Virus record (IMG/VR): IMGVR_UViG_3300050131_000113
Location: 1-58,171 of that record
Length of the DNA: 58,171 bases
Strand: one strand, 5' to 3'
DNA from: a virus
Taxonomy: Duplodnaviria; Caudoviricetes
Program-made: the position numbers and the translations under genes
Shown here: positions 1,622 to 58,117 of the stretch, one piece after another
Numbering within the stretch: position 1 is the first letter of the stretch
Layout: each line of letters starts with the position of its first letter
The notes under the pieces: generated by a model
What the model saw: the letters and a program-made list of their open reading frames with translations, nothing else
Told to the model about the DNA's origin: nothing
The model's database searches: none

Positions 1622-1760
1622 GCAGGATGGTTCAATCGAGCGGCGGGGTCGCGGGGGGTGAGTGCGATCACCGTTTCAGAATCACTTGCTGCCGCGCGCT
1701 CACTGACAGGGTGATCGCACACTGTTGCAGCGGCAGCATTGGTTGATTGAAACAAATCTT
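1622..1760. repeat. dispersed element, inward-facing pair of arms
   Basis: TTCAATC-N24-GTGCGATCACC on both strands; colinear with 18520-18659. Confidence 0.75.
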
Positions 1761-1772
1761 TCTTCCTTCCGA

Positions 1773-1943
1773 TCATCCAAACCGCCTCCGCAAAATCCTC
1801 TCCACCGGAGACCTTCCCCGCAGCCACAACCCCAATTCAAGCGCCACCACGCCCACCACGCAGGCCGCCAGCGCCAGCAGCAACAGAAACAGCCACGGCA
1901 TCGACTGCTCGACCAGGAACTCGATTTCGTCCGCTTCGGTCAT
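1773..1943 (-). CDS. small membrane protein (56 aa)
   Basis: MTEADEIEF...WLFLLLLALAACVVGVVAL; ATGA overlap. Confidence 0.55.
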   Translation of the reverse strand: MTEADEIEFLVEQSMPWLFLLLLALAACVVGVVALELGLWLRGRSPVERILRRRFG

Positions 1944-2332
1944 GGCGCGGTACTCCCGTTTTGCTGTTGCAACTTCTGGTCGAGCGCGCTCCTGCCGATC
2001 GGCGGCTCGCCTAGCAGCTCGGCGAACGGCCTGGCGTAACGGACCGAAGGAGCCGCGGTCTGCATGCCGTAGCGTTCCTCTATCTTTGTGGAGACCTTGC
2101 CGTTCGGCTTGCGATCACGCGGCGGGCGCTTTTTCGGCATGATCCCGAGGATGATCCGGCGCAGATAAAGCCAGCGCTGCCGGCAGGCCAAAGGCGTACG
2201 ACCCAAGAAGGATTCGCAGATTGCCTCCCAGCCAGCGGAACGGGAGGCATGCGACGGCAGGTTGATGCAAAGTTCGGTCAACCGGGCGTCGTCCTCGGCG
2301 TTCCAGAGTTTCCATTTGCCGGTGATGCCCAT
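1940..2332 (-). CDS. Myb/GcrA-like HTH protein
   Basis: WNAEDDARL...GRTPLACRQRW and C-terminal GEPPIGRSAL. Confidence 0.55.
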   Translation of the reverse strand: MGITGKWKLWNAEDDARLTELCINLPSHASRSAGWEAICESFLGRTPLACRQRWLYLRRIILGIMPKKRPPRDRKPNGKVSTKIEERYGMQTAAPSVRYARPFAELLGEPPIGRSALDQKLQQQNGSTAP

Positions 2333-2844
2333 TAGAACGCCCTCCGCTTGCGGTTGCGGTCGAACTTCTCGCCTTCGGCGATGATCAGGGCGCAGGCCTT
2401 GACGAGATCGCGGCGGAAGCCGCCGGGTTTCCACCATTCGCTGGACCATGGCCAAGTGTTTGGCACGGTCGGCCACGATAACGGACTGCCTGCATAATGA
2501 CCGTATGTGCCGCCAGCCTTCGCTAAATCGCCGACAGGATGCGCGTCATCGTGTGCATGGTCCCAGCCTTCGGATTCAATCTGCCGGAAGCGCTCGGCGA
2601 TGACGGCTTGCGAGAATGGCGAAAGCGGCCTGCGGATATGCAGCGCCTCGAACAGCCTTCGAAGCGTGAAGCTGCGCACAATCGAGATCACGGTCATGAT
2701 CAGCGCAAAGACGAGGTTCTGATGGAAGTCGATGTTCACGCCGAGCAGCGGCAGGAAATACATCTGCGCCAAAAGCGAAATGCCGAAGCCGACGGCGATG
2801 TTGATCAGGCTTTCCAGCCAGGACATGAGTTTGGATTGCTTCAT
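2332..2844 (-). CDS. membrane protein fused to a conserved phage domain
   Basis: Two TM helices followed by ERFRQIESEGWD..HDD and RRDLVKACALIIAE. Confidence 0.65.
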   Translation of the reverse strand: MKQSKLMSWLESLINIAVGFGISLLAQMYFLPLLGVNIDFHQNLVFALIMTVISIVRSFTLRRLFEALHIRRPLSPFSQAVIAERFRQIESEGWDHAHDDAHPVGDLAKAGGTYGHYAGSPLSWPTVPNTWPWSSEWWKPGGFRRDLVKACALIIAEGEKFDRNRKRRAF

Positions 2845-2860
2845 ACCGACAGCCCTCCGC

Positions 2861-2917
2861 CGCCGCCTGACTTCTCAGGAGCCGAAGCAGTCTCAGTGCC
2901 GCGCTGAATCAAATCTT
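2861..2917 (-). repeat. dispersed element arm (solo)
   Basis: AAGATTTGATTCAGCGCG-N23-GAGAAGTCAGGC on the minus strand. Confidence 0.75.
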
Positions 2918-2920
2918 CCC

Positions 2921-4060
2921 TCATGCCGCCTCACTCCCTTTTGTTACTGGATTGTCGTCGTCTGTGGTGTCGGGTTCGATGATCTCGCCGGTTTCGGAAT
3001 CGTGTGGCGGGAGTTTGAATTCGAGTTCGTTCCCCCACGTCATCCAGCCGGGCCGTTCGCGCCGCGCGTAAAGCTCGAGATAGGGGCCGGGCACCAGATG
3101 CTCGATCCGGTCGTGGATCTCATCGGGCTTGCGGGAATGATCCATCACGGGAGCGACCAGAAACTGCCGCACATCGGCGTAAAGCCGTTTGGGATGGCCG
3201 CGCGTGGCGAGCCAGCAATCTTCCGGATTAGCGCGGGTCCAGTAGCCTTGGCCCATGAACCAGCCCTCGCCCAGCCGGTTTTCCTTAGCCCAGGTGAACG
3301 CCGTAGTCTGGTGCTGGAATCCCCACGCTTCGATCAGCGCCAGCGCATCGCCGGGGCACCAATCGACCATCCACATGAACAGCACGCAATCCGGCGCGGC
3401 GAGCTGCTCGACCGGCAGCTCCATGATCTCTTCGATTCCTTCGGTCTTGTAATGGAGGTTCGCCGAACGGCCCTCGCCAGCGGCGGACCGGGTTTTGAAT
3501 TTCCACGGCGGGTCGGCCAGGATCGCGCCGGCCTTGTAGCCGGACGCGATCAGGGTTCGCAGATCGTCAACCGTGCCGCCCTGCAGCGCGCGGTCGGCAT
3601 GATCGGAGCGGCGCTTGGCGTCGGCGTGTTCCTTCAGAAGATTGACCGAGACGTGTTTGGCCGATTTTTCCTGCAATTCGCGCCAGCGCGCCACCAGACG
3701 GTCGAAGCTATTCGGCTCGATATTGGCTAGTTGCTCGCAACGACGCGACGAATGCTCGTCGATGTCCATATCGCTCAGCTTGATCTTGGAAACCGCCGCA
3801 TCCGATGCGGAGGTTTTTACCGGCCGGCCGCCCTCGTGAAGCTCGCCAGAGGCGCGCAAATCCTTCTTGATCTCGCCAATTCGCCGCTCAGCGCGGAAGC
3901 GGATTTCGGCCATGGAAATCTCGGCTTCGCGATTTTTGGCCTGCCGCCAGTATAGGCGCAGCGCATCAGCCTTGTTGCGGATGTCCTTGACCTCATCGAC
4001 CGCCTTCGCTTCAGCGATGGCGCGGCAGGCGGCGTCGTATTTGAGGATGGCGGTCGTCAT
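2921..4060 (-). CDS. MT-A70 family N6-adenine DNA methyltransferase
   Basis: ILADPPW, LFMW, WGF..TTAFTWAK, HSRKP, LELYAR, WGNE motifs; N-terminal helical extension. Confidence 0.9.
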   Translation of the reverse strand: MTTAILKYDAACRAIAEAKAVDEVKDIRNKADALRLYWRQAKNREAEISMAEIRFRAERRIGEIKKDLRASGELHEGGRPVKTSASDAAVSKIKLSDMDIDEHSSRRCEQLANIEPNSFDRLVARWRELQEKSAKHVSVNLLKEHADAKRRSDHADRALQGGTVDDLRTLIASGYKAGAILADPPWKFKTRSAAGEGRSANLHYKTEGIEEIMELPVEQLAAPDCVLFMWMVDWCPGDALALIEAWGFQHQTTAFTWAKENRLGEGWFMGQGYWTRANPEDCWLATRGHPKRLYADVRQFLVAPVMDHSRKPDEIHDRIEHLVPGPYLELYARRERPGWMTWGNELEFKLPPHDSETGEIIEPDTTDDDNPVTKGSEAA

Positions 4061-4287
4061 CGCATCCCCCAAACCCGCTTCAACGCCCGCCCGATCTCGC
4101 GTCTCCGTTTCCAGCAGATCCAGGCAAACCATGGCCAGACGACAATCATCGCCAGCGAAGCCCGGAATCCCCAGAACAGCGACGTCGAACCGCGGCGCGC
4201 GAAGCTCTTGGCCACCACCCCGGTCGGGATCAGCACGAAACACCAGAACGCCATGCCGATCGCTGTGTAGATCAGCGCGGCCAGCAT
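4057..4287 (-). CDS. small membrane protein
   Basis: Two hydrophobic segments; start uncertain. Confidence 0.5.
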   Translation of the reverse strand: MLAALIYTAIGMAFWCFVLIPTGVVAKSFARRGSTSLFWGFRASLAMIVVWPWFAWICWKRRREIGRALKRVWGMR

Positions 4288-4291
4288 CAGC

Positions 4292-4305
4292 GTTTCACGT
4301 GAAAC
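4292..4305. promoter_or_regulatory. parS: parS-type palindrome
   Basis: GTTTCACGTGAAAC, the core of the bacterial chromosomal parS consensus. Confidence 0.65.
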
Positions 4306-4428
4306 CATTGCAAACATGGGGTTTCCTACATTCAAAGAAATAGCGGTCCACGAAATGATCGCGGATGAAGGAAGGGGGTTTTGGATTTTTCGGGGTACGC
4401 TGTGACGCAACTAAACTGCAGAACAGGT

Positions 4429-4696
4429 TAGGTTTGATTCAGCGCGACACTTGCGGTCGCTTCTGGTTAGGAGAAGTCAGGCGGCAGGGTCGCGGGCATC
4501 AGCAATTCGAACTTTGCCGAGATCGAAATCCCAAACCATCTGCCCGCGCGAAAACGCGGGCAGTTGCCGGCGGTAGCTGAGCGCGCGCAACAGTTGCGCG
4601 ATGATGAACGGATCGCCTTTGGCTGGCGCAGTATCCCCCACCGATTCCTGACTTGATGGTGCCGACGCTTGCGCAGTGCCGATGTGAATCATATTC
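4429..4696. repeat. dispersed element, inward-facing pair of arms around ~160 bp
   Basis: Plus arm 4429-4487 TAGGTTTGATTCAGCGCG-N24-GAGAAGTCAG; minus arm 4647-4696 TGATTCA-N33-TCAG. Confidence 0.7.
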
Positions 4697-4698
4697 AT
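4477..4698 (-). CDS. hypothetical protein spanning the repeat pair
   Basis: ORF with AGGAG upstream. Confidence 0.4.
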   Translation of the reverse strand: MNMIHIGTAQASAPSSQESVGDTAPAKGDPFIIAQLLRALSYRRQLPAFSRGQMVWDFDLGKVRIADARDPAA

Positions 4699-4707
4699 GC
4701 CGCGCTC

Positions 4708-4959
4708 CTAATCGAGCATGGCGGCATAGACCGCGAGCGCCGCGCGTGCGTTCGGCTTTCGCTTGCCGTCGATGAGATATTGCGCGCCGCGTTCGGAGAG
4801 CCCTGAGCGCTGCGCCAGGTTGAGCGCGGGCTTCGTGGGCCAGAGCGCCATGACGACGCGCCCGAATTTGGAAGATTTATCCGCGCACAAATTCTTTGGA
4901 ACAATTGTTCGGATGTTCTCACTCGACGGCGCGAGCGCGCCGTGACGTGATTCGGCCAT
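4708..4959 (-). CDS. HTH regulator (CII-like position)
   Basis: LAQRSGLSERGAQYLIDGKRKP HTH; lies downstream of cro. Confidence 0.55.
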   Translation of the reverse strand: MAESRHGALAPSSENIRTIVPKNLCADKSSKFGRVVMALWPTKPALNLAQRSGLSERGAQYLIDGKRKPNARAALAVYAAMLD

Positions 4960-5137
4960 GACACACTCTCCGCAACGCAACACAACACAGTCGTTAACTT
5001 TCCCTGAATCGCTGCGCCGCACAGGCGCGGTAACTGCACAAAATAATTGCGGTGCGCTCGCGCAAAAGGTGTGCAATCTTGCAGACACACTTTTGCGGGG
5101 TCGAGTTCATGGGCAAGGTTGTTCGGTTTCCGGGGCG

Positions 5138-5368
5138 TCATGGGCGCGCTCCAGCTTCGCAGACTTCGGCCGGCCAGAGATCGGGGCGCAACTCACTGCG
5201 GGAAACGCCGGTCTCACGTTCGATAGGCAGCACGAATTCTGCCGGCACTCCCTTCTTGGAGCGCTCAAGCCAGTACCAGACCTGTGATTGCGTCGTGCCA
5301 ATGCGTTCCGCGAGGGGTTTTTGTCCCCCTGCTAATCCGCAGGCCCGCTTGAGTGCCTCGTTCGACAT
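5138..5368 (-). CDS. cro: Cro/YdaS-like repressor
   Basis: GGQKPLAERIGTTQSQVWYW...ELRPDLW; divergent from the cI-like gene. Confidence 0.85.
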   Translation of the reverse strand: MSNEALKRACGLAGGQKPLAERIGTTQSQVWYWLERSKKGVPAEFVLPIERETGVSRSELRPDLWPAEVCEAGARP

Positions 5369-5453
5369 GGAATCACCATACCCACTTTTAGGTAGAATTC
5401 AACCTAGAACTCTGTCGGAGACCGATAACCTAGAATTCGGTAGAATTCTTGGC
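5369..5453. promoter_or_regulatory. divergent cro/cI promoters and operators
   Basis: Operators TACCCACTTTTAGGTA (5379-5394) and AACCTAGAATTCGGTA (5427-5442); minus-strand TTGAAT-N16-TATGGT; plus-strand -10 TAGAAT at 5441-5446. Confidence 0.75.
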
Positions 5454-5798
5454 ATGGCGGACACCTCTCCCAAGGGCATTGGAAAACGCATCCGCGCGAG
5501 GCGCATCAAGCTCGGCTTGAGCCAGCCTAAGCTCGCGAAAATACTAGGTATTCCGCAGCAGACCATCGGTGGATGGGAAACCGGCAAAGCCGCCCGCCCC
5601 CGTTACCTTCCGGAAGCCGCAAAAGCGCTGTGCACAACTCAAGAATGGCTTCTCAGGGAAGAGGGCCCCGAGGAGATGGTTCCAGCCGTCTCAAAGCAGC
5701 AAATCGCGATGGCGGTCGAATCACTTCACCCTAAATTGGTGCCGGCAGCGCTAGAATTCCTCAGAAACCTCGCTGAATCCGATACCGAGGCGGCCTAA
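5454..5798 (+). CDS. cI: CI-like XRE-family repressor without an S24 peptidase domain
   Basis: IGKRIRARRIKLGLSQPKLAKILGIPQQTIGGWETGK HTH; 114 aa. Confidence 0.8.
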   Translation: MADTSPKGIGKRIRARRIKLGLSQPKLAKILGIPQQTIGGWETGKAARPRYLPEAAKALCTTQEWLLREEGPEEMVPAVSKQQIAMAVESLHPKLVPAALEFLRNLAESDTEAA

Positions 5799-5809
5799 TG
5801 GGGGAACCA

Positions 5810-6055
5810 ATGATCAGGATCGTCGCGGCCGCGATTGGAACGTTATGCCTTTCGGCGTGCACCAGACCACAGACCGCTTACGAACCCCCGCCTAAACCGA
5901 TTTCCGAGATGACATTCGCCGAAAGATGCGCAAAATTGCTTGAACTTTCAGGCAATTACTACCTGAGCTCGGGCCAGCAGGCCGCCGCCTTCGAGCGCGC
6001 CAGGAACGACGGTTGCATGGGCCAACCCCAACCACAGACCATCATCGTTCGATAA
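5810..6055 (+). CDS. predicted lipoprotein downstream of cI
   Basis: MIRIVAAAIGTLCLSAC lipobox. Confidence 0.65.
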   Translation: MIRIVAAAIGTLCLSACTRPQTAYEPPPKPISEMTFAERCAKLLELSGNYYLSSGQQAAAFERARNDGCMGQPQPQTIIVR

Positions 6056-6105
6056 TCTGCGTTCACGAACTTGTGAACAGCCGCGCGAAAGATTAGATTT
6101 CGTCC

Positions 6106-6147
6106 TACCCATTATTAGGTTGACTACTACCTAATTCTAGGTAAGGT
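6106..6147 (+). promoter_or_regulatory. early rightward promoter with two operators
   Basis: TTGACT-N16-TAAGGT; TACCTAATTCTAGGTA (6128-6143) and TACCCATTATTAGGTT (6106-6121). Confidence 0.75.
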
Positions 6148-6186
6148 CGCTCCATAGCAACCCACCCGCCATGGAGTCCAACCCCG

Positions 6187-6540
6187 ATGACCGCCACCAT
6201 CGAAACCACCACCCCCACCACCAACCCGCTCAAGCCCGCCCGCGCCCGCCTGATCTCTGAATTCTTGTCGCTGGTGCTGCCGTCCTATCCGAACTTCCCG
6301 GCCCCTTCCGACCATGAAGGTGTCGCGCAACACATCCGCGATGTCGCGAACATGTTCGACCGGTATCTGGCCGCGATCGGCTCGGAAGTCCGCGACAACG
6401 CGGTGACCGCGATCGATCGGCACATGTTTGCAGGATCGTTCCTTGGTACTGTCGACGGCAACGAGACGGGTGTTTGCGAAGAACAGGCCAGCGCCTTGAT
6501 CGAATATGCCGCCGAGCGCCGCGCATCGCGGAGGGCGTGA
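6187..6540 (+). CDS. hypothetical early protein
   Basis: First ORF after the promoter; GGAG upstream. Confidence 0.65.
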   Translation: MTATIETTTPTTNPLKPARARLISEFLSLVLPSYPNFPAPSDHEGVAQHIRDVANMFDRYLAAIGSEVRDNAVTAIDRHMFAGSFLGTVDGNETGVCEEQASALIEYAAERRASRRA

Positions 6541-6635
6541 TGACAACATTGCAGTTTTACATGATCGCGATCCCGCTAGGTCTTCTGGCTGGTGCCCCGC
6601 TCGCCGTCGCGTCGCTCTTTGTTTGGGGGATTTGA
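6540..6635 (+). CDS. 31-aa membrane peptide
   Basis: MTTLQFYMIAIPLGLLAGAPLAVASLFVWGI; fills the gap between genes. Confidence 0.45.
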   Translation: MTTLQFYMIAIPLGLLAGAPLAVASLFVWGI

Positions 6636-6636
6636 G

Positions 6637-6870
6637 ATGGCCATCCACCACATCAGCGGCATCAACATCCGCACCAATTACGACTACCCGCCGATTCCGG
6701 TTCGTCAGTTCGACTGGTCCGCGATCGACGATGACACCTATGACGGCGCCGATGATTCATCCTGCCCGATCGGGCATGGCGCGACCGAATTCGACGCGAT
6801 CGAGGATCTGCTGGAGCAGATCGACGACGAGAAGATTTCCGCCAACAGCCAATTCGGAATGGGAGCCTAA
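6637..6870 (+). CDS. conserved hypothetical phage protein
   Basis: YPPIPVRQFDWSAIDDDTYDG...GHGATE. Confidence 0.65.
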   Translation: MAIHHISGINIRTNYDYPPIPVRQFDWSAIDDDTYDGADDSSCPIGHGATEFDAIEDLLEQIDDEKISANSQFGMGA

Positions 6871-6873
6871 ACC

Positions 6874-8663: not shown

Positions 8664-8674
8664 CGCCGCTGGTA

Positions 8675-8720
8675 GGCGGCGGCGATAGGCTTTGGCTCCA
8701 GTCGCCGCCGCCGATTTCTT
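8675..8720 (+). terminator. GC hairpin, probable terminator
   Basis: GGCGGCGGCGA...TCGCCGCCGCC followed by GATTTCTT. Confidence 0.5.
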
Positions 8721-8743
8721 AACCCTCAACCCGAGATAATCCC

Positions 8744-8935
8744 ATGCCCGTTCTTGAAACCATCGACCGTATTTTGGTCATATCGGAAGCCCCGCCGCCG
8801 ATGCTGATCTGCACCGACGCGGATCCGTTCGAAATCGACGATCCCTGCCCGTTCAACGCCAGCGGCCCGCATCGCTTTCTCGCCATCTGCGGCGATGTCG
8901 TCTGCGTGCATTGTGCCAAGGTGATCTGGTCATGA
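8744..8935 (+). CDS. small Zn-binding protein
   Basis: C-P...H...CxxC; coupled to the next gene. Confidence 0.5.
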   Translation: MPVLETIDRILVISEAPPPMLICTDADPFEIDDPCPFNASGPHRFLAICGDVVCVHCAKVIWS

Positions 8936-9195
8936 ACGCGCCGCAGCAGAATGGCACTAAACCGTTGCCAGAGCCTCGTTTGGTCGACGGACCGCTATTG
9001 CCTGTCCGCCGCAAGACGCTGGTGGAGCGGATGGCGAAAGACCTCATCCGATACGACGCGGTAACGCCGGAAGCGGACTCCATCCGCTCGCTGTTCGGTC
9101 GCGGCTATTCGATGGTCGATATCGTGATGCTGATCGATGACGCCCGCCAGGTGGCGATGCAGGCGATCGTGGCGCGGGAGATGTCCGCACCGTGA
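8932..9195 (+). CDS. hypothetical protein
   Basis: 4-nt overlaps on both sides. Confidence 0.55.
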   Translation: MNAPQQNGTKPLPEPRLVDGPLLPVRRKTLVERMAKDLIRYDAVTPEADSIRSLFGRGYSMVDIVMLIDDARQVAMQAIVAREMSAP

Positions 9196-14088: not shown

Positions 14089-14100
14089 GATATCGCGCCG

Positions 14101-18494: not shown

Positions 18495-18519
18495 CACAGG
18501 GGGCTCCGGGTTGAAGTTT

Positions 18520-18659
18520 TAGATTTGATTCAATCAACAGCATGCGCGCTGACAGCGAGTGCGATCACCATTTCAGGGTCGCTTGCTAAAGCAGGCTCAA
18601 GCGTTGCCTGACTTCTCCGCTCATAAAGCGAGATGCGCTGTCGCGCTGAAACAGACCTA
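18520..18659. repeat. dispersed element, inward-facing 'empty' pair
   Basis: TAGATTTGATTCA...TGAAACAGACCTA ends; colinear with 1622-1760. Confidence 0.8.
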
Positions 18660-18821
18660 CAATCGACCGAGCAGCAGCAAGATCACAAGCACCACCACGA
18701 TCAGCCCCAAGCCCCCGCCGCCATAATATCCGGTGCCGTAGAACGGCCCGCCCCCGACGCCGGAGAAGCCGCCGAGCAAACAGATCACGAGAATGATCAG
18801 GATGATGGTTCCGAGTGACAT
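18657..18821 (-). CDS. DUF3309 family membrane protein
   Basis: MSLGTIILIILVICLLGGFSG...YYGGGGLGLIVVVLVILLLLGRL. Confidence 0.8.
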   Translation of the reverse strand: MSLGTIILIILVICLLGGFSGVGGGPFYGTGYYGGGGLGLIVVVLVILLLLGRL

Positions 18822-21015: not shown

Positions 21016-21046
21016 GGTGTGGTTCTCCTAGTTGAGGATGGGAAGG

Positions 21047-21103
21047 AAGGTTTGATTCAGCGCGAGAGCGCTGCCCGCTTCAGCAGCGGAGAAGTCAGTC
21101 AGC
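21047..21103 (+). repeat. dispersed element arm flanked by an 11-bp direct repeat
   Basis: AAGGTTTGATTCAGCGCG-N24-GAGAAGTCAG; AGTTGAGGATG at 21030-21040 and 21104-21114. Confidence 0.8.
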
Positions 21104-21115
21104 AGTTGAGGATGT

Positions 21116-21472
21116 CTAAGCGGCGTGAGTGCCTTCGACGCCGCGCGCCATGCGGGCGCGGGTCCGGTGCAGAAGCCAGTGTTGTGCCTCTTCGATCTTG
21201 GTCAGGGCAAGCGCGTTCTCGCGGCAGCCAAATTTGCCTGCCTGAAACGACCGAAGCCGATCGATGACGATCGCCAGCAGTGCTTCCTGCGTCACGCCGT
21301 TGACGCCGTTCTCGGCAATCGGGCCGTTCTGAAAGCTGATGCGGCAGGTCAGCCCCTTCTGCGTTTCGATCATATATTCGTGGTTCGCCCCGCCAGCGCC
21401 GGGATCATCCAGAACGGTGATTTCCAGCAGATCGTTCGCCGGATTTACCTTATGCTCGTTGATAGTACGCAT
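21116..21472 (-). CDS. tad1: Tad1-like anti-defence signalling-molecule sponge
   Basis: GAGGANHEY, ISFQ.G, LL.IV.DRL.SFQAG.F..RENA.ALT..EEA..W...R...R..R.V.GT match the Tad1 pattern as recalled. Confidence 0.8.
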   Translation of the reverse strand: MRTINEHKVNPANDLLEITVLDDPGAGGANHEYMIETQKGLTCRISFQNGPIAENGVNGVTQEALLAIVIDRLRSFQAGKFGCRENALALTKIEEAQHWLLHRTRARMARGVEGTHAA

Positions 21473-21552
21473 TTTTGCAGGCTCCTTTTGAGCAAGCATT
21501 ATGCCGGAAACCGTCCGGCGCGGACGCTTTTACAAATGGTGAAGCATCAAGA

Positions 21553-21609
21553 CTGCGGGGTGACCGATAGGCGCCAACGCTTGCGCGGTGGCGCGTTGAA
21601 CCAGCCCTT
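21553..21609 (-). repeat. dispersed element arm
   Basis: AGGGCTGGTTCAACGCG...GCGCAAGCGT.GGC.CC...TCAC, similar to the 4647-4696 arm. Confidence 0.65.
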
Positions 21610-22000
21610 AAACTGCCCTGGGCATATCCGCGACGTTGGCCTGGATCGCCGCCGGCAGCGTGGCGATGGTCTTCGCGACTTCGGCCGGCTGCAGGGTCAG
21701 ACTTTGCGCTGCGATCTGACTGACCGTCACTTGCGGTAATCCGGCCTGATTGAGTTTTGCCGCCTGTGCCAGCGATTTGGCTTTCAAGACTTCGAGCTGC
21801 GATACCACGATAGCGCGGCCATAACTGTTCCAGAAGGACCATGCGCCGCCCAACGTCGCCATGCCGATCGCGACGAAGGTTTCGGTCTGGCTGCCGTTGA
21901 TAATGCCGTGTGCGGCGGCAGCCGAGCCGAGCGCCATCAGTCCGTTTTTCGCAACACTCGCCGCCAGCGTCAGCATCATGGTCTTGGTCTTGTCGTCCAT
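21608..22000 (-). CDS. putative holin
   Basis: Two N-terminal TM helices; located in the lysis cluster. Confidence 0.55.
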   Translation of the reverse strand: MDDKTKTMMLTLAASVAKNGLMALGSAAAAHGIINGSQTETFVAIGMATLGGAWSFWNSYGRAIVVSQLEVLKAKSLAQAAKLNQAGLPQVTVSQIAAQSLTLQPAEVAKTIATLPAAIQANVADMPRAV

Positions 22001-38553: not shown

Positions 38554-38983
38554 GGGGAAATTCCTCTGCGACCCACCAGGCTTTCGCGTCGTGCGCGAGC
38601 AGCCCATAGGTCTCGGCAGCACCCGACGTGAACACGTCCGGATGAATGCCTTCCAGTTTAAATCCGAGGCGGCAGAGGAATGCCCTGGCGGGCTGGTTCG
38701 TAGCCTCGATGATGGCGGTAACGCGCTTGCATCCTAACTGTCTGAACGGATATTTCAGGATTGCCGAGATCGCGCTTTTGCTGGCCCAGCGCGGCGAGGA
38801 CGTGACGAAGGTTATCTCGATATTCGGCGGCCGGAAGTTGTTGAAGACCGCAACTGCGACGATTTTTCCTTGACGCGCGACGCCGATCGAAGTGTTCGGT
38901 TTGGCGATTTCCATCCCGAGGCGATCGCCGGCCCATGCGGCGAGAGCATCATCGGCGCGAAAGAGAAGCACGAAGCGGCGCAA
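38516..38983 (-). CDS. GNAT-fold tail assembly protein
   Basis: YPFRQLGCKRVT...RLGFKLEG; follows the nozzle gene; start uncertain. Confidence 0.7.
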   Translation of the reverse strand: MRRFVLLFRADDALAAWAGDRLGMEIAKPNTSIGVARQGKIVAVAVFNNFRPPNIEITFVTSSPRWASKSAISAILKYPFRQLGCKRVTAIIEATNQPARAFLCRLGFKLEGIHPDVFTSGAAETYGLLAHDAKAWWVAEEFPLEQIKPNRSDAG

Positions 38984-38984
38984 T

Positions 38985-39044
38985 CTGCCCAAGTGATCGC
39001 AAACCAGAATCAGATAGCTCCGTGTTCGATTGAACCATCTCCTA
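38985..39044 (-). repeat. dispersed element arm (solo)
   Basis: GATGGTTCAATCGA...GCGATCAC....GCAG directly after the nozzle stop codon. Confidence 0.65.
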
Positions 39045-40607
39045 AAACCCCACGCCCATTTCCCCACGCAAATCCGTCCGTAACCAGGTCGCAGGCTCCG
39101 TCGCCGAGATATTCAGCGCCACGCTCAACGCCACGCCCGATCCTCCCGACGCACTCCACAACGTACCAACCACCTGTTCGGCCGACCATGGCGAGGTGTC
39201 CCATGGCGAGGTATCCCACGGGCTGCCCGGGTTCGATGTCACCAGCGCCACCGGCACGTTGACGTCGCCATAATCAAACCCGATCGAAAATGTGTAGCCG
39301 AGCGAACCGATGGTCTGCAGCACCGGGCGGATCGCGGTAGCCCGCTTGCGCAAGGGGCTTTGCAGCGTATTCCAGGCCTGCTGTCCGATCGCGGTGACGG
39401 GGCCCAAGAGATCCATGCTGCCGGTATCGGCGAGATAGATTTTTCCTCCCGAACCCCCGAAATAAAGCGAATCCTTGAACAACCCCCAGCAGGAAGCGTT
39501 CATATTGACAAAACGGCACCAAGGCGAGGCCATCCGGCCGGTTTGCGTATCCTGATATTGCACCCCGGTATTATGGACGTGCTGGCTAAAGGTGCCGTCA
39601 GGATTCGGGATGTTAAAAATCAGACGCCGCCCCTTCGGATAGTACAGCGCCTGCCAGCCGAACGCTCCCTTGTTGGCGGTAACTGCTGCCTGCACCGCGC
39701 TGGAGACTTTCGAGCGAGACGGAAGACCGCCCGATGAGATCGCCGTTAGTTGATCCTTCAGCGGCACATGATCGTCATAGGTGGTCAAGAACGCTTCCGC
39801 TCCGTAATTGCAGACCGCGCGGGGGCCGACAGGCGGCGACAGCGCATAAGTTCCGACCAAGGCCCAGTTCAACAGGTTCGCCGGATCGTTGCCGAAATAA
39901 ATCAGACAATCGCCCGATGACATGATGAAGACGATAAAATCCTGCACCCCGTTGCCGCCGTCGAGACTATAGGTCGTGACCGCGACCAGGTTGCCGCCGC
40001 GCGGCGCCCAGGCCGACAGATCGAAGAACGACAGCGCGCCGGAAATCGAATTCAGCTGCGCAAACCAGAAGCCGGGCGAATTGGCCTGCCAGAAGAACAG
40101 CCGCTGCTGATAGAGCGCGCCCGCAATGATGGTCGCAAGCGACGGCGTCGAGCCCCCCGTAAACGCTGCGTTGCCTAATGTGGTGCCGTCGAACACCTGC
40201 ATGACATCGGTGCCGTTGGCGAAGAACAACCGCGACAGGAAGCTGACCGTGTTCCAGGCGTCCGAACCAAACCCCGTTGCCAGGGGAGAGCCGACCACAC
40301 CCGAGGCCGACACGTCATAGATCGCGCCTGAAGCTGCTGCCAGAAACTTTCGCGTGGCGCCGACATTGAATTCCGCCAGCGTCTTGACCGTTCCGGCACC
40401 CAGCCCGCTCGCATATAGTGTGTAGCCGTTGCGGGTGGAAACGCCGCCGGCGTCGGGATAGAGATTGTCGAGCTGAATTGCGTCGGCCGGATCCATTGCA
40501 TCGAGCGCGTCCCGCGTATTCCAGCCCTTGATTGGAGAGACGAACGAAAACGGTTCCTGCACGGCTTGCGAGGCAACCTGCAAGCGCTGCTGTTGCGTCA
40601 TGCGCAT
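39042..40607 (-). CDS. tail nozzle / DNA stabilization protein
   Basis: PIKGWN.RD, beta-propeller-like, SPWDTSPW; synteny. Confidence 0.75.
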   Translation of the reverse strand: MRMTQQQRLQVASQAVQEPFSFVSPIKGWNTRDALDAMDPADAIQLDNLYPDAGGVSTRNGYTLYASGLGAGTVKTLAEFNVGATRKFLAAASGAIYDVSASGVVGSPLATGFGSDAWNTVSFLSRLFFANGTDVMQVFDGTTLGNAAFTGGSTPSLATIIAGALYQQRLFFWQANSPGFWFAQLNSISGALSFFDLSAWAPRGGNLVAVTTYSLDGGNGVQDFIVFIMSSGDCLIYFGNDPANLLNWALVGTYALSPPVGPRAVCNYGAEAFLTTYDDHVPLKDQLTAISSGGLPSRSKVSSAVQAAVTANKGAFGWQALYYPKGRRLIFNIPNPDGTFSQHVHNTGVQYQDTQTGRMASPWCRFVNMNASCWGLFKDSLYFGGSGGKIYLADTGSMDLLGPVTAIGQQAWNTLQSPLRKRATAIRPVLQTIGSLGYTFSIGFDYGDVNVPVALVTSNPGSPWDTSPWDTSPWSAEQVVGTLWSASGGSGVALSVALNISATEPATWLRTDLRGEMGVGF

Positions 40608-50466: not shown

Positions 50467-52907
50467 TGCAATTCCCTCGCGCCACGCGATGCGACGTTCT
50501 GTTCCCGCGTCATGGCAATATCGCGTTCGTTCGCGACGCGCTGGCCCTCAAGCGCAATTTCCGCTTCACGGTGCGGAGCTTCCTGTGCTGCCTGATCCGC
50601 TACCTGCTGCGTCTTCTGATTTTGTATCATCAGCAGCGTGGCGTTCTTCTCCCGCGCGATGGTGACCGCATCGGAAGATTTCTGGGTTTGAGCCGCTGCG
50701 TCCACCGCTGCCGTCTGCGTTTCAGTGGCAGCCCTGGTCTCGGTCTCGTGCACCTTGGCCGCGATCTCGGCGGGATCCGCACCCTGCTTGCCGGCTGGCG
50801 CTTTGCCATCCTGGCCGGTCGCCTTCGGGTTAGGCGGCATCTGCGCAATAGCGGCGAACGCCTTTTCGATGGTTTCCTCCAGCGGACGCGCCACGCGATA
50901 GCCGCGCACCACAAACAAGGTCATTTCCTTGGCCATGTCGGCCATCGCCGGATTGCCTTGCGCGATCGGGATCACGGTTTCCATGAAGGGCACGAACTGC
51001 TGCATGAATTCGGTGCGGGCTTTCTTTTCGGCTTGCTCATCGGGAGCGATGGTAGAGTCGGCCTCGATGTCGATCCGGAAGCCGTGCACGCCATCCTGTT
51101 TGATCAGGGCGACCGCGGCGTCGAATTGCTGCTGCTTTTGCTGGTTGGCCTGCGTCAGTGCCTGCACTTGTTGGGCGACCTGCTGCCACTGCGCCATTTG
51201 CTGCTCATAGGCCTGCATCTGCGGCGACGGTGGCGCGGGTTGCGGCGCTGCCGCCGGCATCCCTGGCTGACCACCATTCTGTGGCATGCCCTGCGGCTGG
51301 AGTGCTTGCGGAGGCGCTAATTGAAGCGGCTGCGGCGGCATCTGCGGCTGCGGCGGCAATTGAGGAACCGGCGCGAGCTGCGGATAGCCCGTCACTTCCG
51401 AAATCGTCTTGGCCGAAAAATGTTCCGCGATCACCCCGCCGATCAGCCGGAACATGTCGCGGGCGAACCGGGCAATCGATTTCTGCTGCGGCGTAATGCG
51501 CCGGGTCGAAAAGTTGGCTTTCAACTCCTGCGCACCCAGTGTTTCGTCCGGAGACGTCATGCCGCGCATGATGTCGCCGATGCCGGTGATTTCGTACAGG
51601 ATGTTCTTGACGCGGTCGCGCGCGTTGTAGAGTTGAATCAGGGTTTCGGCGACCTGCTGGATCGGCAGCCACTGGACCATGTCCTTCAGGCTGCCGCTGT
51701 TGGCGAAGGCCGCGAAATCTTGCACAGGGATCAGCTGGTTGTCGCCGGAATCGAACAGCTGCTGCAAAACCTGCTTGTTTTCGCCGGGATAGATGCCCTT
51801 GACCGCAAGCGCCTGGGTCAAGACGTCGATCCGCGCCGTCAGCTTGTCGAGTTCGCGCGCCTGGTCCTGATATTCGATGAAATCGGGAACTGGGATCCGC
51901 TTGTCGTTGGTGGTGGTCGCAAGACACGGATTGGGCGACGGGAAAAATCCCGGCAGCTTTAGGGGATCATCCTGCTTGTCGAGAATGAGATCGGGCGTTC
52001 CCGGCGCAAGCCAAATCGCCTGGCTTTTGGTCTTGTCCCAATATTCGTGAACGACCGCCTTCTTGAACATGTCCGGCGGCGGGTTTTCCTTTTCCTCCGA
52101 GCCAGAACCCTTCGGCGTGAAGTCGAGATTGACGGCGTTGCCCTTCTTCTTGCCGAACCGATTTACCAGATCGTCGCGTGTCAGGTATGAGCGATAGCGG
52201 ATCCATGGCACTTCCTGCCATTTGCGCGCCGGACCCTCGCGGTAGTCTTCCCAGAACACATAAGCCGGCTTTGCCTCTTCGTAAGTCACTTCGCGCAGCG
52301 GCTCGGCTTCGTCCTTTGCACCCTTCTTTTCGCCGGCCTCGTCGTCGCTTTCGTCACCGGGATTGTCGACGATAGAGGGCGAGGAATTGGCGTTGGCGAA
52401 TTCGGCATTGCCGCCCGCATCGGGCTTCGGCGCGGCGGCGTCTTTGATCTCGTCGCCGAAATGCGGAACGTACAGCACCCGCGCGGTGCCGCGGCCCGGT
52501 AGCAAGCGGTCTTCGGTGACCGCTCCCATCATGTCGTCGAAATCGAATTGATCCGCCGAAAACGTGATGCAGCGCTCCAGTAGCGTCGAGGCCAGCCGTG
52601 CGGTCGGATCGTCGTCGCGGAAACGGCGCTCGACATCGGCCTTGGGCGTGCGCGCATACAGCGTCGGGATCAGGGTCTGGACGTTCGACCACAGGATGTT
52701 GAAGCGGTTGGTTTGTTTGTCGGCCTCAGGACGCTCGTCGCGGTAGCGCTGCACGATCTTGCGGGCTTGCTTGATCCATTTGCGCTCTTCGCGTTCGGCG
52801 ATCTTCTCCTGGCCCATCCAGTAGGCATAGGTCGCATCGGGCTCGGAGCCGAGATCCTTGCGAGTCTCGATGGTGCCGGTCTGGTTATTGGAGACGGGAT
52901 CAACCAT
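50463..52907 (-). CDS. portal protein
   Basis: FNILWSNV.TL.P.LY..TP, EITGI.DIMRG, IDIE.DSTI; follows TerL. Confidence 0.85.
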   Translation of the reverse strand: MVDPVSNNQTGTIETRKDLGSEPDATYAYWMGQEKIAEREERKWIKQARKIVQRYRDERPEADKQTNRFNILWSNVQTLIPTLYARTPKADVERRFRDDDPTARLASTLLERCITFSADQFDFDDMMGAVTEDRLLPGRGTARVLYVPHFGDEIKDAAAPKPDAGGNAEFANANSSPSIVDNPGDESDDEAGEKKGAKDEAEPLREVTYEEAKPAYVFWEDYREGPARKWQEVPWIRYRSYLTRDDLVNRFGKKKGNAVNLDFTPKGSGSEEKENPPPDMFKKAVVHEYWDKTKSQAIWLAPGTPDLILDKQDDPLKLPGFFPSPNPCLATTTNDKRIPVPDFIEYQDQARELDKLTARIDVLTQALAVKGIYPGENKQVLQQLFDSGDNQLIPVQDFAAFANSGSLKDMVQWLPIQQVAETLIQLYNARDRVKNILYEITGIGDIMRGMTSPDETLGAQELKANFSTRRITPQQKSIARFARDMFRLIGGVIAEHFSAKTISEVTGYPQLAPVPQLPPQPQMPPQPLQLAPPQALQPQGMPQNGGQPGMPAAAPQPAPPSPQMQAYEQQMAQWQQVAQQVQALTQANQQKQQQFDAAVALIKQDGVHGFRIDIEADSTIAPDEQAEKKARTEFMQQFVPFMETVIPIAQGNPAMADMAKEMTLFVVRGYRVARPLEETIEKAFAAIAQMPPNPKATGQDGKAPAGKQGADPAEIAAKVHETETRAATETQTAAVDAAAQTQKSSDAVTIAREKNATLLMIQNQKTQQVADQAAQEAPHREAEIALEGQRVANERDIAMTREQNVASRGARELQ

Positions 52908-55887: not shown

Positions 55888-55943
55888 AAGTCTAGGGGGG
55901 CAGCGATGGCGCGAGCATGCGCCAGCACTAACCTATGGATAGC

Positions 55944-55974
55944 AAAAAGCCCCGCGCGTTGCCGCCGGGGCTTT
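55944..55974 (-). terminator. late-leader terminator 1
   Basis: AAAGCCCCG...CGGGGCTTTTT. Confidence 0.75.
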
Positions 55975-56041
55975 GGTCGGCTGAGGGAATTACCTTCCAT
56001 GCTACGCCAAAAGCGTGACCCCCGAAGGGTGTCTCGCCTGG

Positions 56042-56728
56042 TCAGGATTCGGATGGTGGAATGTCCTCTTTTGCCGCCACAACGCGGCTGATTCTTCCGA
56101 ACGCCTCAACGAATAGAATTGTCTGCTGAGTCGTGTCAAGTATCGTATGGGTGACGGAAGTGGATATGCCCCGCTCTTCGGCGGCTTTGGTCGGTTTGAT
56201 GACGGCGAGCCGCAGTTGTTTGGCGGTCACGCTGGCATCGCAGCGGTCGAATTTGCCGTCATATTCGGCCAGCCGCAGCATCTCGATCTCATAGTCATGA
56301 ATGACGGCGAAGCTTTCGCCGACCAGGCAAACCCCGCACATGCCGTTGAGGTCGAACAGCCGAACCAATGAATAGGACCCGAACAGCCTTCGCAGGAAGA
56401 TGTAATCGGCGTAGGGCGTGCGAACGTCCTCACGTAGGACGACTTGCTTTTGGTTGCGCTTTTTCGGTCCAACATAGCGATCCGGCATCCGCGACAGGTG
56501 GCGGCCCTGCGGGAACCAGACCTCGAAGCCCTCCCGCATCAGGGCGATTTTTGCTGGAGCATGCGATTTGGGCTTTACCCGGGCGATCCACCAAGGGTCG
56601 AAACAGTGCAGTTCTGAAGGGTCGGGTGACGAGCCGCTGGCGCGTTGATGGCGCCGGACGTCGATATTGGCCAGTGCCGCCATGACATCGGGCGAGAATG
56701 CGTCCTTCAAATCCTTCAATGCCTGCAT
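56042..56728 (-). CDS. NusG/RfaH-like antiterminator
   Basis: WWIARVKP...L...GFEVWFP...P..DYIF NGN domain; FGR near the C-terminus; occupies the Q position. Confidence 0.7.
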   Translation of the reverse strand: MQALKDLKDAFSPDVMAALANIDVRRHQRASGSSPDPSELHCFDPWWIARVKPKSHAPAKIALMREGFEVWFPQGRHLSRMPDRYVGPKKRNQKQVVLREDVRTPYADYIFLRRLFGSYSLVRLFDLNGMCGVCLVGESFAVIHDYEIEMLRLAEYDGKFDRCDASVTAKQLRLAVIKPTKAAEERGISTSVTHTILDTTQQTILFVEAFGRISRVVAAKEDIPPSES

Positions 56729-56747
56729 CGTCTGCCCTCTTTCCCGT

Positions 56748-57878
56748 TCACTTGAAATCCGCCAGTTCCGCTTCGGAAAGTTCGGCTGGAGGGGGACCGG
56801 TTGGGTAGATTTTGCCTTCGACGGAGGGCGGCCATGGCCACGGGGCGCGGTCACCTTCGGCTAGATGCTTTCGGACCTGGACGGTGACGGTTTCGCGGAG
56901 GAAACCTTCCCATGCCGCGGCTTGCTGCCGGTTGAGGGTTTCCCATTCGGACGGTTGCGGCGATTGAGCCAGCGCGAGCAGCCGAGGCGTCATCGGCGGG
57001 CGATAGCGCACGGTTCCATCGGTACCGCGGAGGATTACCCGGAAGGCCTCGCCAGCGCCGGCGACGTCGTAGGCGATGGCGATGGCGATGGCTTCCGGAC
57101 TGCCCTTGGCGTAGGCCACCGAAACCGCCGGTTCCTTGGCCTGGTCGAGCAGCGTCCAGCGCTTTTCCTCGAGGTAGCGCCACCCGGCGGGAACGTTTTT
57201 GCGCCCAAGTCGTTTGAGATTTTCCAGAAACGGCCCGATTCCGGCGATGGCGGCTGTTTCCTCGTCCTCGGAAAGCGCGCCAGCGGCATAGGCCGTTCGC
57301 TGGCGATCGTCGGCGGCGGCTGTTGGCCACCTGGCTTCGAAGGTTACGAGGAATCTTGCTTGCCGATCTCGCGCGCGCGCATCTCTCTCACGTTCAAGGT
57401 GGGGACGTTCTAAGGGGACGTTCTTGGTGCCATCGTATGGAATGGCACCCGTGCCAACCCCAGGGGTTGGCACGGGGGTGCCAACCTGTTGGCACCCCCC
57501 CTCATCAGATGTGGTTTCTGCATAGCTTTCGCCGTCGTCGGTTTCAGCTCCTTCGGCGACCGCTTCGAAGGCAAAATCGTCACGGTCAAGCAATACCCGA
57601 TACGCATGGGAGCGCGAGGGTCGCTTGCCGGCTTCCTCGACCTCGACGTCGCGGCGCTTCTTTTCCACCCATCCGGCGACGTAAAGCCGTTCCAGCGAGT
57701 TTTGCAGGGATGCGCGGGAACAGTCGATTTCCTGGGCCATCTTGACCTGGCTGCGGAAACACCATCCGGCTTTGTCGGTATGGCGGCCGAGCAGGCAGAG
57801 CACCTGAAGGTCGCGCGGCTCGAGCGAGCGGTCGGTGACGGCGCCGGCGGGGATGATGGAAAAGCGGGGATGGCTCAA
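56748..57878 (-). CDS. replication initiator (N-terminal HTH)
   Basis: FSIIP..A..D..L...D..VL..L, CFRSQ..MA. Confidence 0.75.
   Translation of the reverse strand: MSHPRFSIIPAGAVTDRSLEPRDLQVLCLLGRHTDKAGWCFRSQVKMAQEIDCSRASLQNSLERLYVAGWVEKKRRDVEVEEAGKRPSRSHAYRVLLDRDDFAFEAVAEGAETDDGESYAETTSDEGGCQQVGTPVPTPGVGTGAIPYDGTKNVPLERPHLERERDARARDRQARFLVTFEARWPTAAADDRQRTAYAAGALSEDEETAAIAGIGPFLENLKRLGRKNVPAGWRYLEEKRWTLLDQAKEPAVSVAYAKGSPEAIAIAIAYDVAGAGEAFRVILRGTDGTVRYRPPMTPRLLALAQSPQPSEWETLNRQQAAAWEGFLRETVTVQVRKHLAEGDRAPWPWPPSVEGKIYPTGPPPAELSEAELADFK
57426..57500. repeat. iteron-like palindromes, putative origin
   Basis: Three tandem GTGCCA...TGGCAC inverted repeats within rep. Confidence 0.65.
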
Positions 57879-58072
57879 TTAGGTCTCCGGCCGTGCTGGC
57901 ACTTTTCGTTGATCTGGCAGCGTCTGATCGCGCAGATGACGGTGTCCGGGTTCCGGCAGGGTTTTTCGGAATGAGGGCCAAACCGGCGGCGAAGGATTTC
58001 CATCTCTGTGTCCTTGGCGGGGTCGTAATAGGTGGCGAGGTGCGGGCTCATATGGTGTTGCTTTTGGTTCAC
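57875..58072 (-). CDS. hypothetical protein
   Basis: Overlaps the rep start; own start uncertain. Confidence 0.4.
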   Translation of the reverse strand: MNQKQHHMSPHLATYYDPAKDTEMEILRRRFGPHSEKPCRNPDTVICAIRRCQINEKCQHGRRPN

Positions 58073-58117
58073 TCGGACAGAAGGGATGCTGCGGTCACTG
58101 GTCGATCACCCGGGCGG
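58062..58117 (+). repeat. degenerate dispersed element arm
   Basis: TTTTGGTTCACTC-N27-TCGATCACC. Confidence 0.45.

Follow-up and report, generated by a model that had tools for sequence, protein, structure and literature searches.

A polar 70-nt repeat arm, mostly in inward-facing pairs with or without genes between them, at gene junctions of otherwise unrelated phages

What is a repeat that sits between the genes of a phage, mostly in inverted pairs and often around other genes, when the phage encodes no recognisable enzyme for moving it? The question is raised by virus record IMGVR_UViG_3300050131_000113 (Duplodnaviria; Caudoviricetes), whose whole length of 58,171 bp (IMG/VR class linear, 100% complete; G+C ~60%) is the window analysed here. 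An initial annotation, made from the sequence alone, had described a dispersed bipartite element at gene boundaries and proposed a gene-capture system resembling inverted-repeat transposable elements of miniature size (MITEs) and mobilised in trans, or else a family of protein-binding or RNA sites. We follow this repeat, here called the arm, through the window and other phages, and tentatively read arms as the ends of non-autonomous elements of the MITE or mobile insertion cassette (MIC) kind that stay translatable where they insert. We give this reading serious weight, just short of thinking it probable.

All eleven copies claimed for the window are present on the strands given. A profile built from them scores them at 27.3-43.6 bits, values that are circular for the copies themselves, and the next best window site at 4.8 bits, which does show the absence of a twelfth copy. 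A non-circular test is the regular expression TG[AGT]TTCA-N31-37-TCA[CG][CG]: its nine matches on both strands all fall among the eleven, and 300 sequences simulated by a first-order Markov model, which preserves dinucleotide content, averaged 0.42 matches and never had more than 3. The motif is thus enriched over simulated sequence, the opposite of what the annotation had named as speaking against it. Aligned window copies read (A/T)AG(G/A)T-xTG-N-TTCA, followed after a variable stretch by GAGAAGTCAGG, GCGATCACC or a variant of either; the two subtypes proposed at the outset, and the hybrids between them, are real. Each of the six minus-strand copies begins at or just after a stop codon, as predicted (TGA 1775-1773, in an ATGA overlap; TGA 2923-2921; TAG ~4708; TAG 18659-18657; TAA 21610-21608; TAG 39044-39042). 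Two pairs enclose nothing: from TTCA to the first base of its inverted partner they measure 120 and 121 nt (121 and 122 in the annotation), and both have the colinear middle TGAGC-N7-AGCAAG. The pair 4438/4688 encloses a 73-aa open reading frame (ORF) whose start falls within the arm, and the pair 21056/21600 encloses one gene.

The ~70-nt polar arm is present in at least 10 other phage contigs from IMG/VR or metagenomes. The exact bipartite pattern of one subtype occurs in 10 IMG/VR stretches, and the window-only profile confirmed copies in eight of these, often as adjacent plus-then-minus pairs; it found 22 further copies in other phage contigs, so that a profile scan of related phages, suggested as a check, recovered the same arm family outside the window. 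Two other patterns gave little: TTCAATC-N24-38-TGCGATCAC had chance matches only, none passing the profile, and CGCGATCACCCTGTC matched contig G005 alone. Five phage contigs were then read whole and the profile was rebuilt from 33 copies. With it, 50 arms are found: 11 in the window (G000), 13 in G001, eight in G002, 16 in G005 and two in the fragment L009. Arms are fewer and weaker in G003 and G004, and occur singly or in pairs in L094, L272, L275, L189, L202, L279 and L280.

Among these 50 arms, 42 form 21 inward-facing plus-then-minus pairs (in G000, G001, G002, G005 and L009), with TTCA-to-TTCA distances of 106-1428 nt; no pair of reversed polarity surrounds an empty interval. Seven pairs are empty and 14 are loaded with one or two genes. 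In the empty unit two inward ~70-nt polar arms add up to an imperfect palindrome of ~136-150 bp, and loaded versions hold 0.25-1.4 kb of cargo exactly at the centre. The 21 pairs thus have the terminal inverted repeats around a short, transposase-free element that mark a MITE, and the 14 loaded cassettes, with inverted ends around passenger genes and no gene for transposition among these, have the mark of a MIC. Of the eight solo arms, six are sense to the local genes, one is antisense at the window end and one is unclear.

In 48 aligned arms the invariant columns are G17 (of xTG), T19-A22 (TTCA) and T56-A58 (TCA), while T16, C29, A30 and C40 are at least 90% conserved. TCA lies 34-36 nt beyond TTCA, and the fixed points fall at about columns 20, 30 and 40. 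The outer flank is a purine run (GGGAAGG-like) and the inner end continues to ...CAGCG. Outside the few invariant bases arms are only ~46-48% identical. Subtype combinations look random: by our count three of the 21 pairs are homotypic versus ~4.6 expected from subtype frequencies, and a preference for heterotypic pairing is not significant among these pairs.

As for a MITE, the same unit is found at unrelated loci: the B/A empty pair occurs three times (~49.0 kb and ~50.8 kb in G001, ~1.6 kb in L009) in unrelated flanks, with a similarity of ~70-89% (translated comparison) that is confined to the ~140-bp unit. In G001, a 12-nt direct repeat, TCAAATCGATCA, brackets 136 bp (50778-50913); once the element and one copy of the repeat are taken out, the ORF upstream continues to a TAA 3 nt before the next ATG. 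Restored ORF and duplication together point to an insertion footprint. At an orthologous site upstream of a D12 methyltransferase gene, the pair of G001 is empty, and in G002 the same two arm types enclose ~570 bp, all in one open frame; homology stops exactly at the palindrome centre. At the DUF7220/DUF5131 junction the window has a small gene and an empty pair, and G005 a loaded cassette. At a further site an antisense A arm and its downstream flank are common to G001, G002 and L009, the sense arms differ, and the cargo is unrelated or absent. Other cargo was looked for and found across the 14 loaded cassettes: many ORFans, PAPS-reductase-like and DHHA1 proteins, DUF6948 with a TrAA12-like gene, DUF968 with its neighbour, and a weak Acb2/Tad1 match.

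Conservation does not depend on orientation. The profiles of 34 sense and 22 antisense arms are equal, with TG, TTCA and CA invariant or nearly so in both, and neither set has three-base periodicity (mean entropy at codon positions 1/2/3: sense 1.15/1.09/1.21, antisense 0.99/1.07/1.16). The same nucleotides, GCGATCAC and AAGTCAGG, are retained in differing reading frames between subtypes. RNAalifold on the 48 arms gave a consensus with 0 pairs. Arm likeness is 0.458 within pairs and 0.479 between pairs (permutation p 0.85); partners are no more complementary than non-partners, so that selection is unlikely to act on a stem, be it of RNA or a cruciform. On the strength of orientation-independent conservation, the lack of periodicity, fold and partner complementarity, and the frame-independent nucleotides, we read the primary constraint on arms as one on double-stranded DNA. 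Columns ~20, 30 and 40 are one helical turn apart, suggesting protein contact on one face. The protein-binding sites offered as an alternative in the annotation may hold as well, being compatible with cassette ends.

Many arms also look coding. Of 61 arms, 54 keep the xTG frame open for 19 codons, with recurrent peptides LIQSDTEQAASGLRSP and MIQSDTAQAEASRDHPV, and arms form the in-frame 5' ends of ORFs of 223-784 aa: frames of 223, 571 and 784 aa in G001 and G002, and in G005 a 312-aa PAPS-reductase-like protein and a 340-aa ORF. By our count ATG is present in 11/34 sense versus 3/22 antisense arms, and TTG in 9/34 sense versus 17/22 antisense arms. Sense arms provide mini-ORFs of 18-30 codons, whose start and stop overlap the neighbours, or N-terminal extensions of cargo; the GGTTTGCGATCAC-type mini-ORF has 21-22 codons, a length kept in six copies from four contigs. 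Cargo is fused in frame to the end repeat in eight of the 14 loaded cassettes. At the far side, the reverse complement of the arm supplies a TGA stop in five cassettes (our reading) and is read through in three, in a frame that avoids both its TGAs. The sense arms thus appear adapted to translation. How they are built into it (mini-ORFs, N-terminal extensions, ATGA overlaps) had been missed by the annotation, as had the sharing of the arm family by otherwise unrelated phages.

The palindrome can also lie in frame inside a gene, as it does in G001 and G002, while most copies are at gene ends. One G001 frame (29481-32720; L176 9481-12720, minus; 1079 aa) runs through an empty pair into the D12 N6-adenine methyltransferase, and a G002 frame (14059-16818; L178; 919 aa) runs through a loaded pair into the same kind of gene. 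The upstream segment of both is without a Pfam match. The two frames may encode genuine fusion proteins; if not, translation would begin within the pair or beyond it.

Arm-bearing phages are not one lineage. Relatives of the window terminase are found at 69% identity in G003 only and at 28% in G002, with none in G001, G004 or G005, and what the arm-rich contigs have in common is early genes (DUF7220, the replication initiator, DUF968, methyltransferases), 40-69% identical. When the best 80 IMG/VR loci with DUF7220 are compared, multiple arms are seen in G001, G002 and G005 alone, and two other loci have one each; the whole related contigs G006-G010 have 0-1 arms each. Fixed positions in relatives had been named as favouring a regulatory site. 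Positions are not fixed: occupancy is patchy, and most related phages are without arms. The window phage is one of peat soil; the public runs that hold it come from peat and permafrost metagenomes. Three of the arm-free relatives that share DUF7220 (G007, G008 and G009) are of IMG/VR class provirus, so that the phage group includes temperate members.

The MITE-like, gene-carrying element of the annotation is thus partly borne out, by the inverted pairs, the recurrence of the unit, the central cargo, one target duplication, the patchy occupancy and the lack of an on-board enzyme; its mobilisation in trans stays conjectural, as no autonomous partner, host copy or excision was found. Pfam (E<=1e-3) gave no integrase, resolvase, transposase, HUH or tyrosine recombinase family in the 86 window ORFs. 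The earlier statement that no transposase or recombinase is encoded therefore stands for these families and needs amending for homologous recombination, for which the window has ERF and YqaJ genes.

A number of results weigh against cassette ends. In the other 20 of the 21 pairs, flank matches (exact and 10-mer) are at chance level, giving no sign of a target duplication. Among 185,579 species genomes, one exact subtype pattern had 44 matches, the number due to chance for 19 fixed bases, and none passes the profile (best 11.9 bits). A sequence-only covariance model (R1) was run on 154 genomes (3 + 151) picked without knowledge of the host; the 151 genomes of one alphaproteobacterial family gave two weak matches, both inside ordinary coding sequence. 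On the grounds of these narrow searches a host repeat was rejected. In metagenome contigs, the same subtype pattern returned only known contigs and one new phage-like contig. No autonomous element with arm ends was found in the viral, genome and metagenome scans (one subtype) or in the 151 genomes (profile model), which are narrow searches; a parent insertion sequence with matching ends was likewise absent from these scans, ISfinder being outside the comparison. The contigs of four runs over 2800-22799 show no joint, skip, excision or inversion at arms, contigs being apt to hide rare variants; all 19 phage-holding runs exist as contigs. Run contigs do break near 4515-4761 and at 18591, i.e. 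at arms, which says that assemblers stumble there and nothing more. Some G005 cargo (DUF968 with its neighbour, DUF6948 with TrAA12-like) is ordinary, arm-free backbone in the window, so that counter-defence cargo is a tendency and no rule. Solo arms are mostly sense, hinting at a sense-strand function that a purely selfish repeat does not need, and 70-nt arms with several subtypes are unusual for simple insertion-sequence ends. Our confidence is held below probable because the arms are long and diverged, target duplications are nearly absent, solo arms are biased to sense and no partner enzyme was found.

If arms are cassette ends, the following may be pictured; the trans-acting enzyme, the mode of movement and the part of ERF and YqaJ are what we infer. 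Cassettes would reside in operons, early and accessory ones, of a set of phages from peat and soil. A protein not recognisably encoded in the phage would read arms as double-stranded DNA, through TG-N-TTCA, CA, C and TCA about one helical turn apart. The unit would be inserted at gene junctions, by cut-and-paste or copying, and would be able to duplicate a target of ~12 bp. In packed, translationally coupled operons the survivors would be insertions that keep ribosomes moving; arms would look translated because the operons are so tightly packed and coupled that ribosome-stopping insertions are lost. The sense arm would carry or continue an open frame, and the antisense arm would be read through or give a TGA stop. 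After insertion, arms would be portable homology, and ERF and YqaJ, candidate agents for such exchange, may swap cargo when phages co-infect. This second layer is plausible and would have much the same effect as the shuffling by promoter-early stem-loop (PeSL) cassettes of T4-type phages.

A more specific version is doubtful. It would make the pairs phage-specific 'plug-and-play' slots for accessory and counter-defence genes: a ~140-bp palindromic dock at a coupled junction, with a central promoter-less ORF expressed at once via the arms. An arm-binding enzyme, no recognisable transposase or integrase, would insert the docks, and ERF and YqaJ would trade cargo among the docks of co-infecting phages that are otherwise unrelated. 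The sense arm would serve as ribosome hand-over and start, the antisense arm as read-through tail or stop.

It is unlikely that arms are portable-homology linkers only, at which ERF/YqaJ or host recombination swaps modules with no transposition and no dedicated enzyme. Both genes are in the window, mosaicism is extreme in these genomes, which resemble each other in single genes only, arm-subtype hybrids occur, and the hot spot of G001, G002 and L009 combines a constant antisense arm and flank with a varying sense arm and cargo. PeSLs are reported to mediate modular shuffling (PMC2839356). Recombination needs direct repeats flanking a module, however, and does not account for the inward polarity of 21/21 pairs, the empty pairs, the whole unit in unrelated flanks, or helical-turn-spaced invariant bases in ~50% divergent arms. 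Our low estimate follows from the inverted polarity and the 12-nt target duplication, which linkers leave unexplained.

Cis-regulation is improbable too. Arms would be operators for a phage DNA-binding protein, much like repressor sites scattered along gene boundaries, or sense leaders and mini-ORFs tuning the next gene, with pairs bracketing genes for looping or silencing. Their place exactly between a stop and the next start would suit this, as would the ATGA overlaps with neighbours, the constant mini-ORF length of the GGTTTGCGATCAC type and the mainly sense solo arms. Yet arm positions vary among relatives, identical genes are found with and without arms, and antisense arms, unable to act as leaders, retain the invariant bases; target duplication and central cargo insertion are unexpected for operators. 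Nor is there a promoter or terminator pattern at arms beyond chance: in 1-6000 a consensus scan gave two sigma-70-like promoters versus 1.9 expected, neither an arm feature, and terminator-like sites were at chance level. The relatives of ORF 6187-6540 are confined to the arm-rich G001, G002 and G005, which would fit a shared regulator, but this may reflect the closer kinship of the four phages, and the ORF gives no family or fold lead.

We think it very unlikely that the arm is purely coding, a shared N-terminal targeting or packaging tag on early proteins with incidental inverted copies. Several long ORFs do start with an arm, with peptides such as LIQSDT..SRDHPV, and some within-subtype changes are synonymous; against this stand the constancy of GCGATCAC and AAGTCAGG across differing frames, the missing codon periodicity, the motif kept in 22 antisense arms, and the many sense arms that are separate mini-ORFs ending before the next gene. 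Hardly credible, finally, is the RNA-site alternative of the annotation, with the pair folding in the transcript to process, stabilise or terminate it: it is possible to draw empty pairs as long hairpins with TTGATTCAA/TTGAATCAA ends closing them, and one of eight folded pairs has z -4.3, but the other seven have z -0.97 to -2.7, single arms have no consensus fold, partners lack special complementarity (a weak refutation), pair members lie up to 1.4 kb apart, solo arms occur, and Rfam has no match at gathering score (whole window) or at E<=1 (1500-4800), so that Rfam, RNAalifold and the pair folds all speak against a structured RNA.

With cassette ends as our preferred reading, known systems can be compared. 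MITEs are described as small, with terminal inverted repeats, no transposase and multiple copies, and in-frame fusions as possible (PMC10969869). Arm units are alike in their ~140-bp empty pair, terminal inverted repeats, lack of a transposase, multiple copies per genome in unrelated contexts at gene boundaries, and in-frame fusions. They are unlike in that the arms, at ~70 nt, make up nearly the whole element and are ~46-48% identical outside invariant bases; in that one of 21 pairs has a target duplication and no cognate insertion sequence was found; and in that copies were found in phages and none in the bacterial genomes searched. One study reportedly has MITEs common to viruses and their hosts.

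MICs have the inverted repeats of an insertion sequence around passenger genes and are moved in trans. Arm cassettes share with them inverted ends around one or two non-transposition passenger genes, and the coexistence of empty and loaded forms. The ends of MICs, however, are identical to those of a known insertion sequence with a mobilising transposase, a partner not found for arms, whose cargo is moreover fused in frame to the end repeat in 8/14 loaded cassettes.

Rickettsia palindromic elements (RPEs) are ~150-bp palindromes tolerated in frame inside coding genes, with no known enzyme (PMC10969869). The empty pair inside the 1079-aa frame of G001 and the loaded pair inside the 919-aa frame of G002 are alike. 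RPEs differ in being bacterial, inside genes and without cargo, a separation made by description and not by sequence; arm elements lie at gene starts and ends, supply start and stop codons and can carry genes. By analogy we read the arm cassette as possibly shaped, like RPEs, by the need to stay translatable (PMC10969869).

In PeSL cassettes of T4-type phages, dispersed motifs flank small non-essential genes and mark the break points of insertions, deletions and replacements (PMC2839356). Short conserved motifs that flank accessory genes in plastic phage regions are the likeness. PeSLs consist, however, of a sigma-70 promoter and a terminator hairpin in direct orientation, with deletions and mini-circles, whereas arms are inverted, lie within translated sequence and have no promoter or terminator stem-loop pattern (scan of 1-6000).

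Repetitive extragenic palindromic (REP) units each form a short hairpin whose 5' tetranucleotide is conserved; a chromosome holds tens to hundreds of them, together with the gene for a REP-associated tyrosine transposase (RAYT). Their doublets (bacterial interspersed mosaic elements, BIMEs; REP doublets forming hairpins, REPINs) are inverted repeat pairs after stop codons; the doublet is the spreading unit and is moved by the RAYT. Arms likewise have two inverted copies close together after stop codons. They differ in that a single arm is no hairpin (0 pairs in RNAalifold), no Y1/HUH family of the RAYT type is among the 86 window ORFs, and there are no chromosomal copies in the bacterial genomes searched.

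Integron attC sites are alike in serving promoter-less genes as exchangeable units, with imperfect palindromes of ~60-140 bp after the stop and expression from outside. Integron cargo, however, lies between whole attC palindromes, each cassette being followed by one, and arm cargo lies inside one palindrome; the 86 window ORFs include no integron integrase by Pfam, and Rfam gave no match, whether Rfam holds an attC model not having been ascertained. One study is said to have found integron gene cassettes in phages. No published description of the arm element was found in full-text literature, Rfam has no match and ISfinder was outside the comparison; the element, of which we thus find no description in print, fits the MITE and MIC kind.

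The window phage has no near match among deposited phages: 50,697 records were compared with positions 1-20000 by megablast, and none matched. ARAGORN found 0 tRNA genes in the window. Gene positions come from a codon-usage script and no validated gene finder. By PHROG and Pfam, the minus strand at ~23.8-55.3 kb encodes terminase, portal, major head protein, tail and lysis genes. The early region consists of a leftward block (~5.4 kb down to 1, resuming from 58.1 kb) and a rightward block (5.8-18.2 kb). Features are collected in Table 1.

Table 1. Arms, cargo and other features of the window, in order of position
Feature	Position	Strand	Score
13-nt ATGAGCCCGCACC, upstream copy of direct repeat	367..379	-	
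Arm, GCGATCACC type, antisense to local minus-strand genes, left half of empty pair 1	1608..1698	+	nhmmer 24.6 bits
Arm, GCGATCACC type, sense, right half of empty pair 1	1685..1774	-	nhmmer 49.2 bits
Solo sense arm, GAGAAGTCAGG type	2852..2925	-	nhmmer 48.8 bits
Antisense arm, GAGAAGTCAGG type	4418..4504	+	nhmmer 44.4 bits
Cargo ORF, 73 aa, no Pfam family match; codons 3-20 are the sense arm	4477..4698	-	
Sense arm, TCAAGTCAGG type, fused in frame to the 73-aa cargo ORF	4625..4710	-	nhmmer 34.0 bits
ERF single-strand annealing protein	6874-7662	+	Pfam PF04404 5.2e-20
YqaJ-like exonuclease	7659-8663	+	Pfam PF09588 3.5e-20
DUF968/HNH-like gene (rightward block)	9192-9641		
Antisense arm, GCGATCACC type, left half of empty pair 2	18509..18596	+	nhmmer 31.3 bits
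Sense arm, GAGAAGTCAGG type, right half of empty pair 2	18581..18667	-	nhmmer 41.9 bits
Antisense arm, GAGAAGTCAG type, downstream of cargo gene	21032..21122	+	nhmmer 44.9 bits
Cargo gene, likely start ATG after AAGGAG near 21471	21116..21499	-	
Sense arm, CCTATCGGTCACC type	21537..21620	-	nhmmer 40.9 bits
Solo sense arm, GGTTTGCGATCAC type	38972..39054	-	nhmmer 34.4 bits
13-nt ATGAGCCCGCACC, downstream copy of direct repeat	58039..58051	-	
Antisense arm beside contig end, followed by a run of 13 G	58048..58118	+	nhmmer 29.1 bits

Window arms adjoin their genes closely. In empty pair 1, the in-frame ATG of the sense arm overlaps the stop of the upstream small membrane-protein ORF (ATGA); in empty pair 2, the sense arm begins at the TAG of another such ORF. 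The solo arm at 2852 is a 27-codon mini-ORF that bridges the methyltransferase gene 2921-4243 and the DUF7220 gene 2332-2844, its ATG overlapping the methyltransferase stop and its TGA the DUF7220 ATG, so that there are ATGA overlaps at both ends. The reverse complement of the arm at 4418 supplies the TGA that stops the 73-aa cargo ORF, and the arm at 4688 sits behind a conserved junction of Shine-Dalgarno sequence (SD) and ATG where arm-free relatives start other genes. The cargo gene at 21116 has a weak match to the Acb2/Tad1 hairpin domain (PF24729, E 3.8e-5; 24.2 bits, under the 27-bit cut-off); Acb2 and Tad1 are cyclic-nucleotide sponge proteins. The arm at 21537 directly follows the TAA of gene 21608-22000 and yields a 24-codon mini-ORF, and that at 38972 lies between an amidase-like gene (39042-40607) and a GNAT acetyltransferase ORF (38516-39067 frame).

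For the arm at 58048 no partner was found in the window. The 13-G run that adjoins it lies just inside the right contig end (region considered: 58095-58171 and 1-60), and the assembly may have broken inside a cassette; the absent partner may be an artefact. The two ATGAGCCCGCACC copies would flank an insert consisting of ORF 56-379 and this arm, if the contig ends are contiguous.

A few further observations concern arm surroundings and the early region. The junction behind the conserved gene 4695-5141 (window 4695-4712) reads stop - GGAG(G/C)GCGGC - ATGA in three related phages (L192, L194, L202), of which L192 differs in the spacer, and the next gene varies among relatives; boundaries of a second, arm-free kind are thus conserved too. 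A further conserved motif occurs downstream of several antisense arms: GTTCCTGTTGCGTCC, followed by one or two more GCGTCC units and an A-rich tract, ~30-45 nt ahead of the SD-ATG of the next gene (window ~4370-4415, minus; G002 ~18945-18990; G001 ~28500-28545; G005 ~29700-29750; L009 ~1710-1745). The operon leading toward the replication initiator may have its promoter or an operator here. The 117-aa ORF 6187-6540 (+) has 41-56% identity to its relatives, with none in G003, G004 or G006-G010; considered as a trans factor, it was set aside, since neither Pfam nor PHROG assigns it to a family and the look-alikes in the ESM Atlas score low. ORF 10189-10911, with a weak TrAA12-like match, holds a 12-nt tandem repeat at 10217-10611 (~21-22 copies of GCTACGGC/GCGACGGC units) that encodes a Gly/Tyr/Asp/Ser-rich segment.

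Phage genomes are mosaic, and their accessory genes, many of them for counter-defence, turn over fast. The physical routes have been worked out in a few cases only: the PeSLs of T4-type phages, homing endonucleases and relaxed recombination. An enzyme-less, translation-sparing inverted-repeat cassette common to structurally unrelated phages would be a further mechanism, and the dock system, if true, would be an integron-like gene exchange within operons, at the level of translation. Arm pairs would also be a handle for new accessory genes, anything between two arms being a candidate. Finally, arms would add to the mobile repeats shaped by the need to stay translatable, so far described mainly for RPEs.

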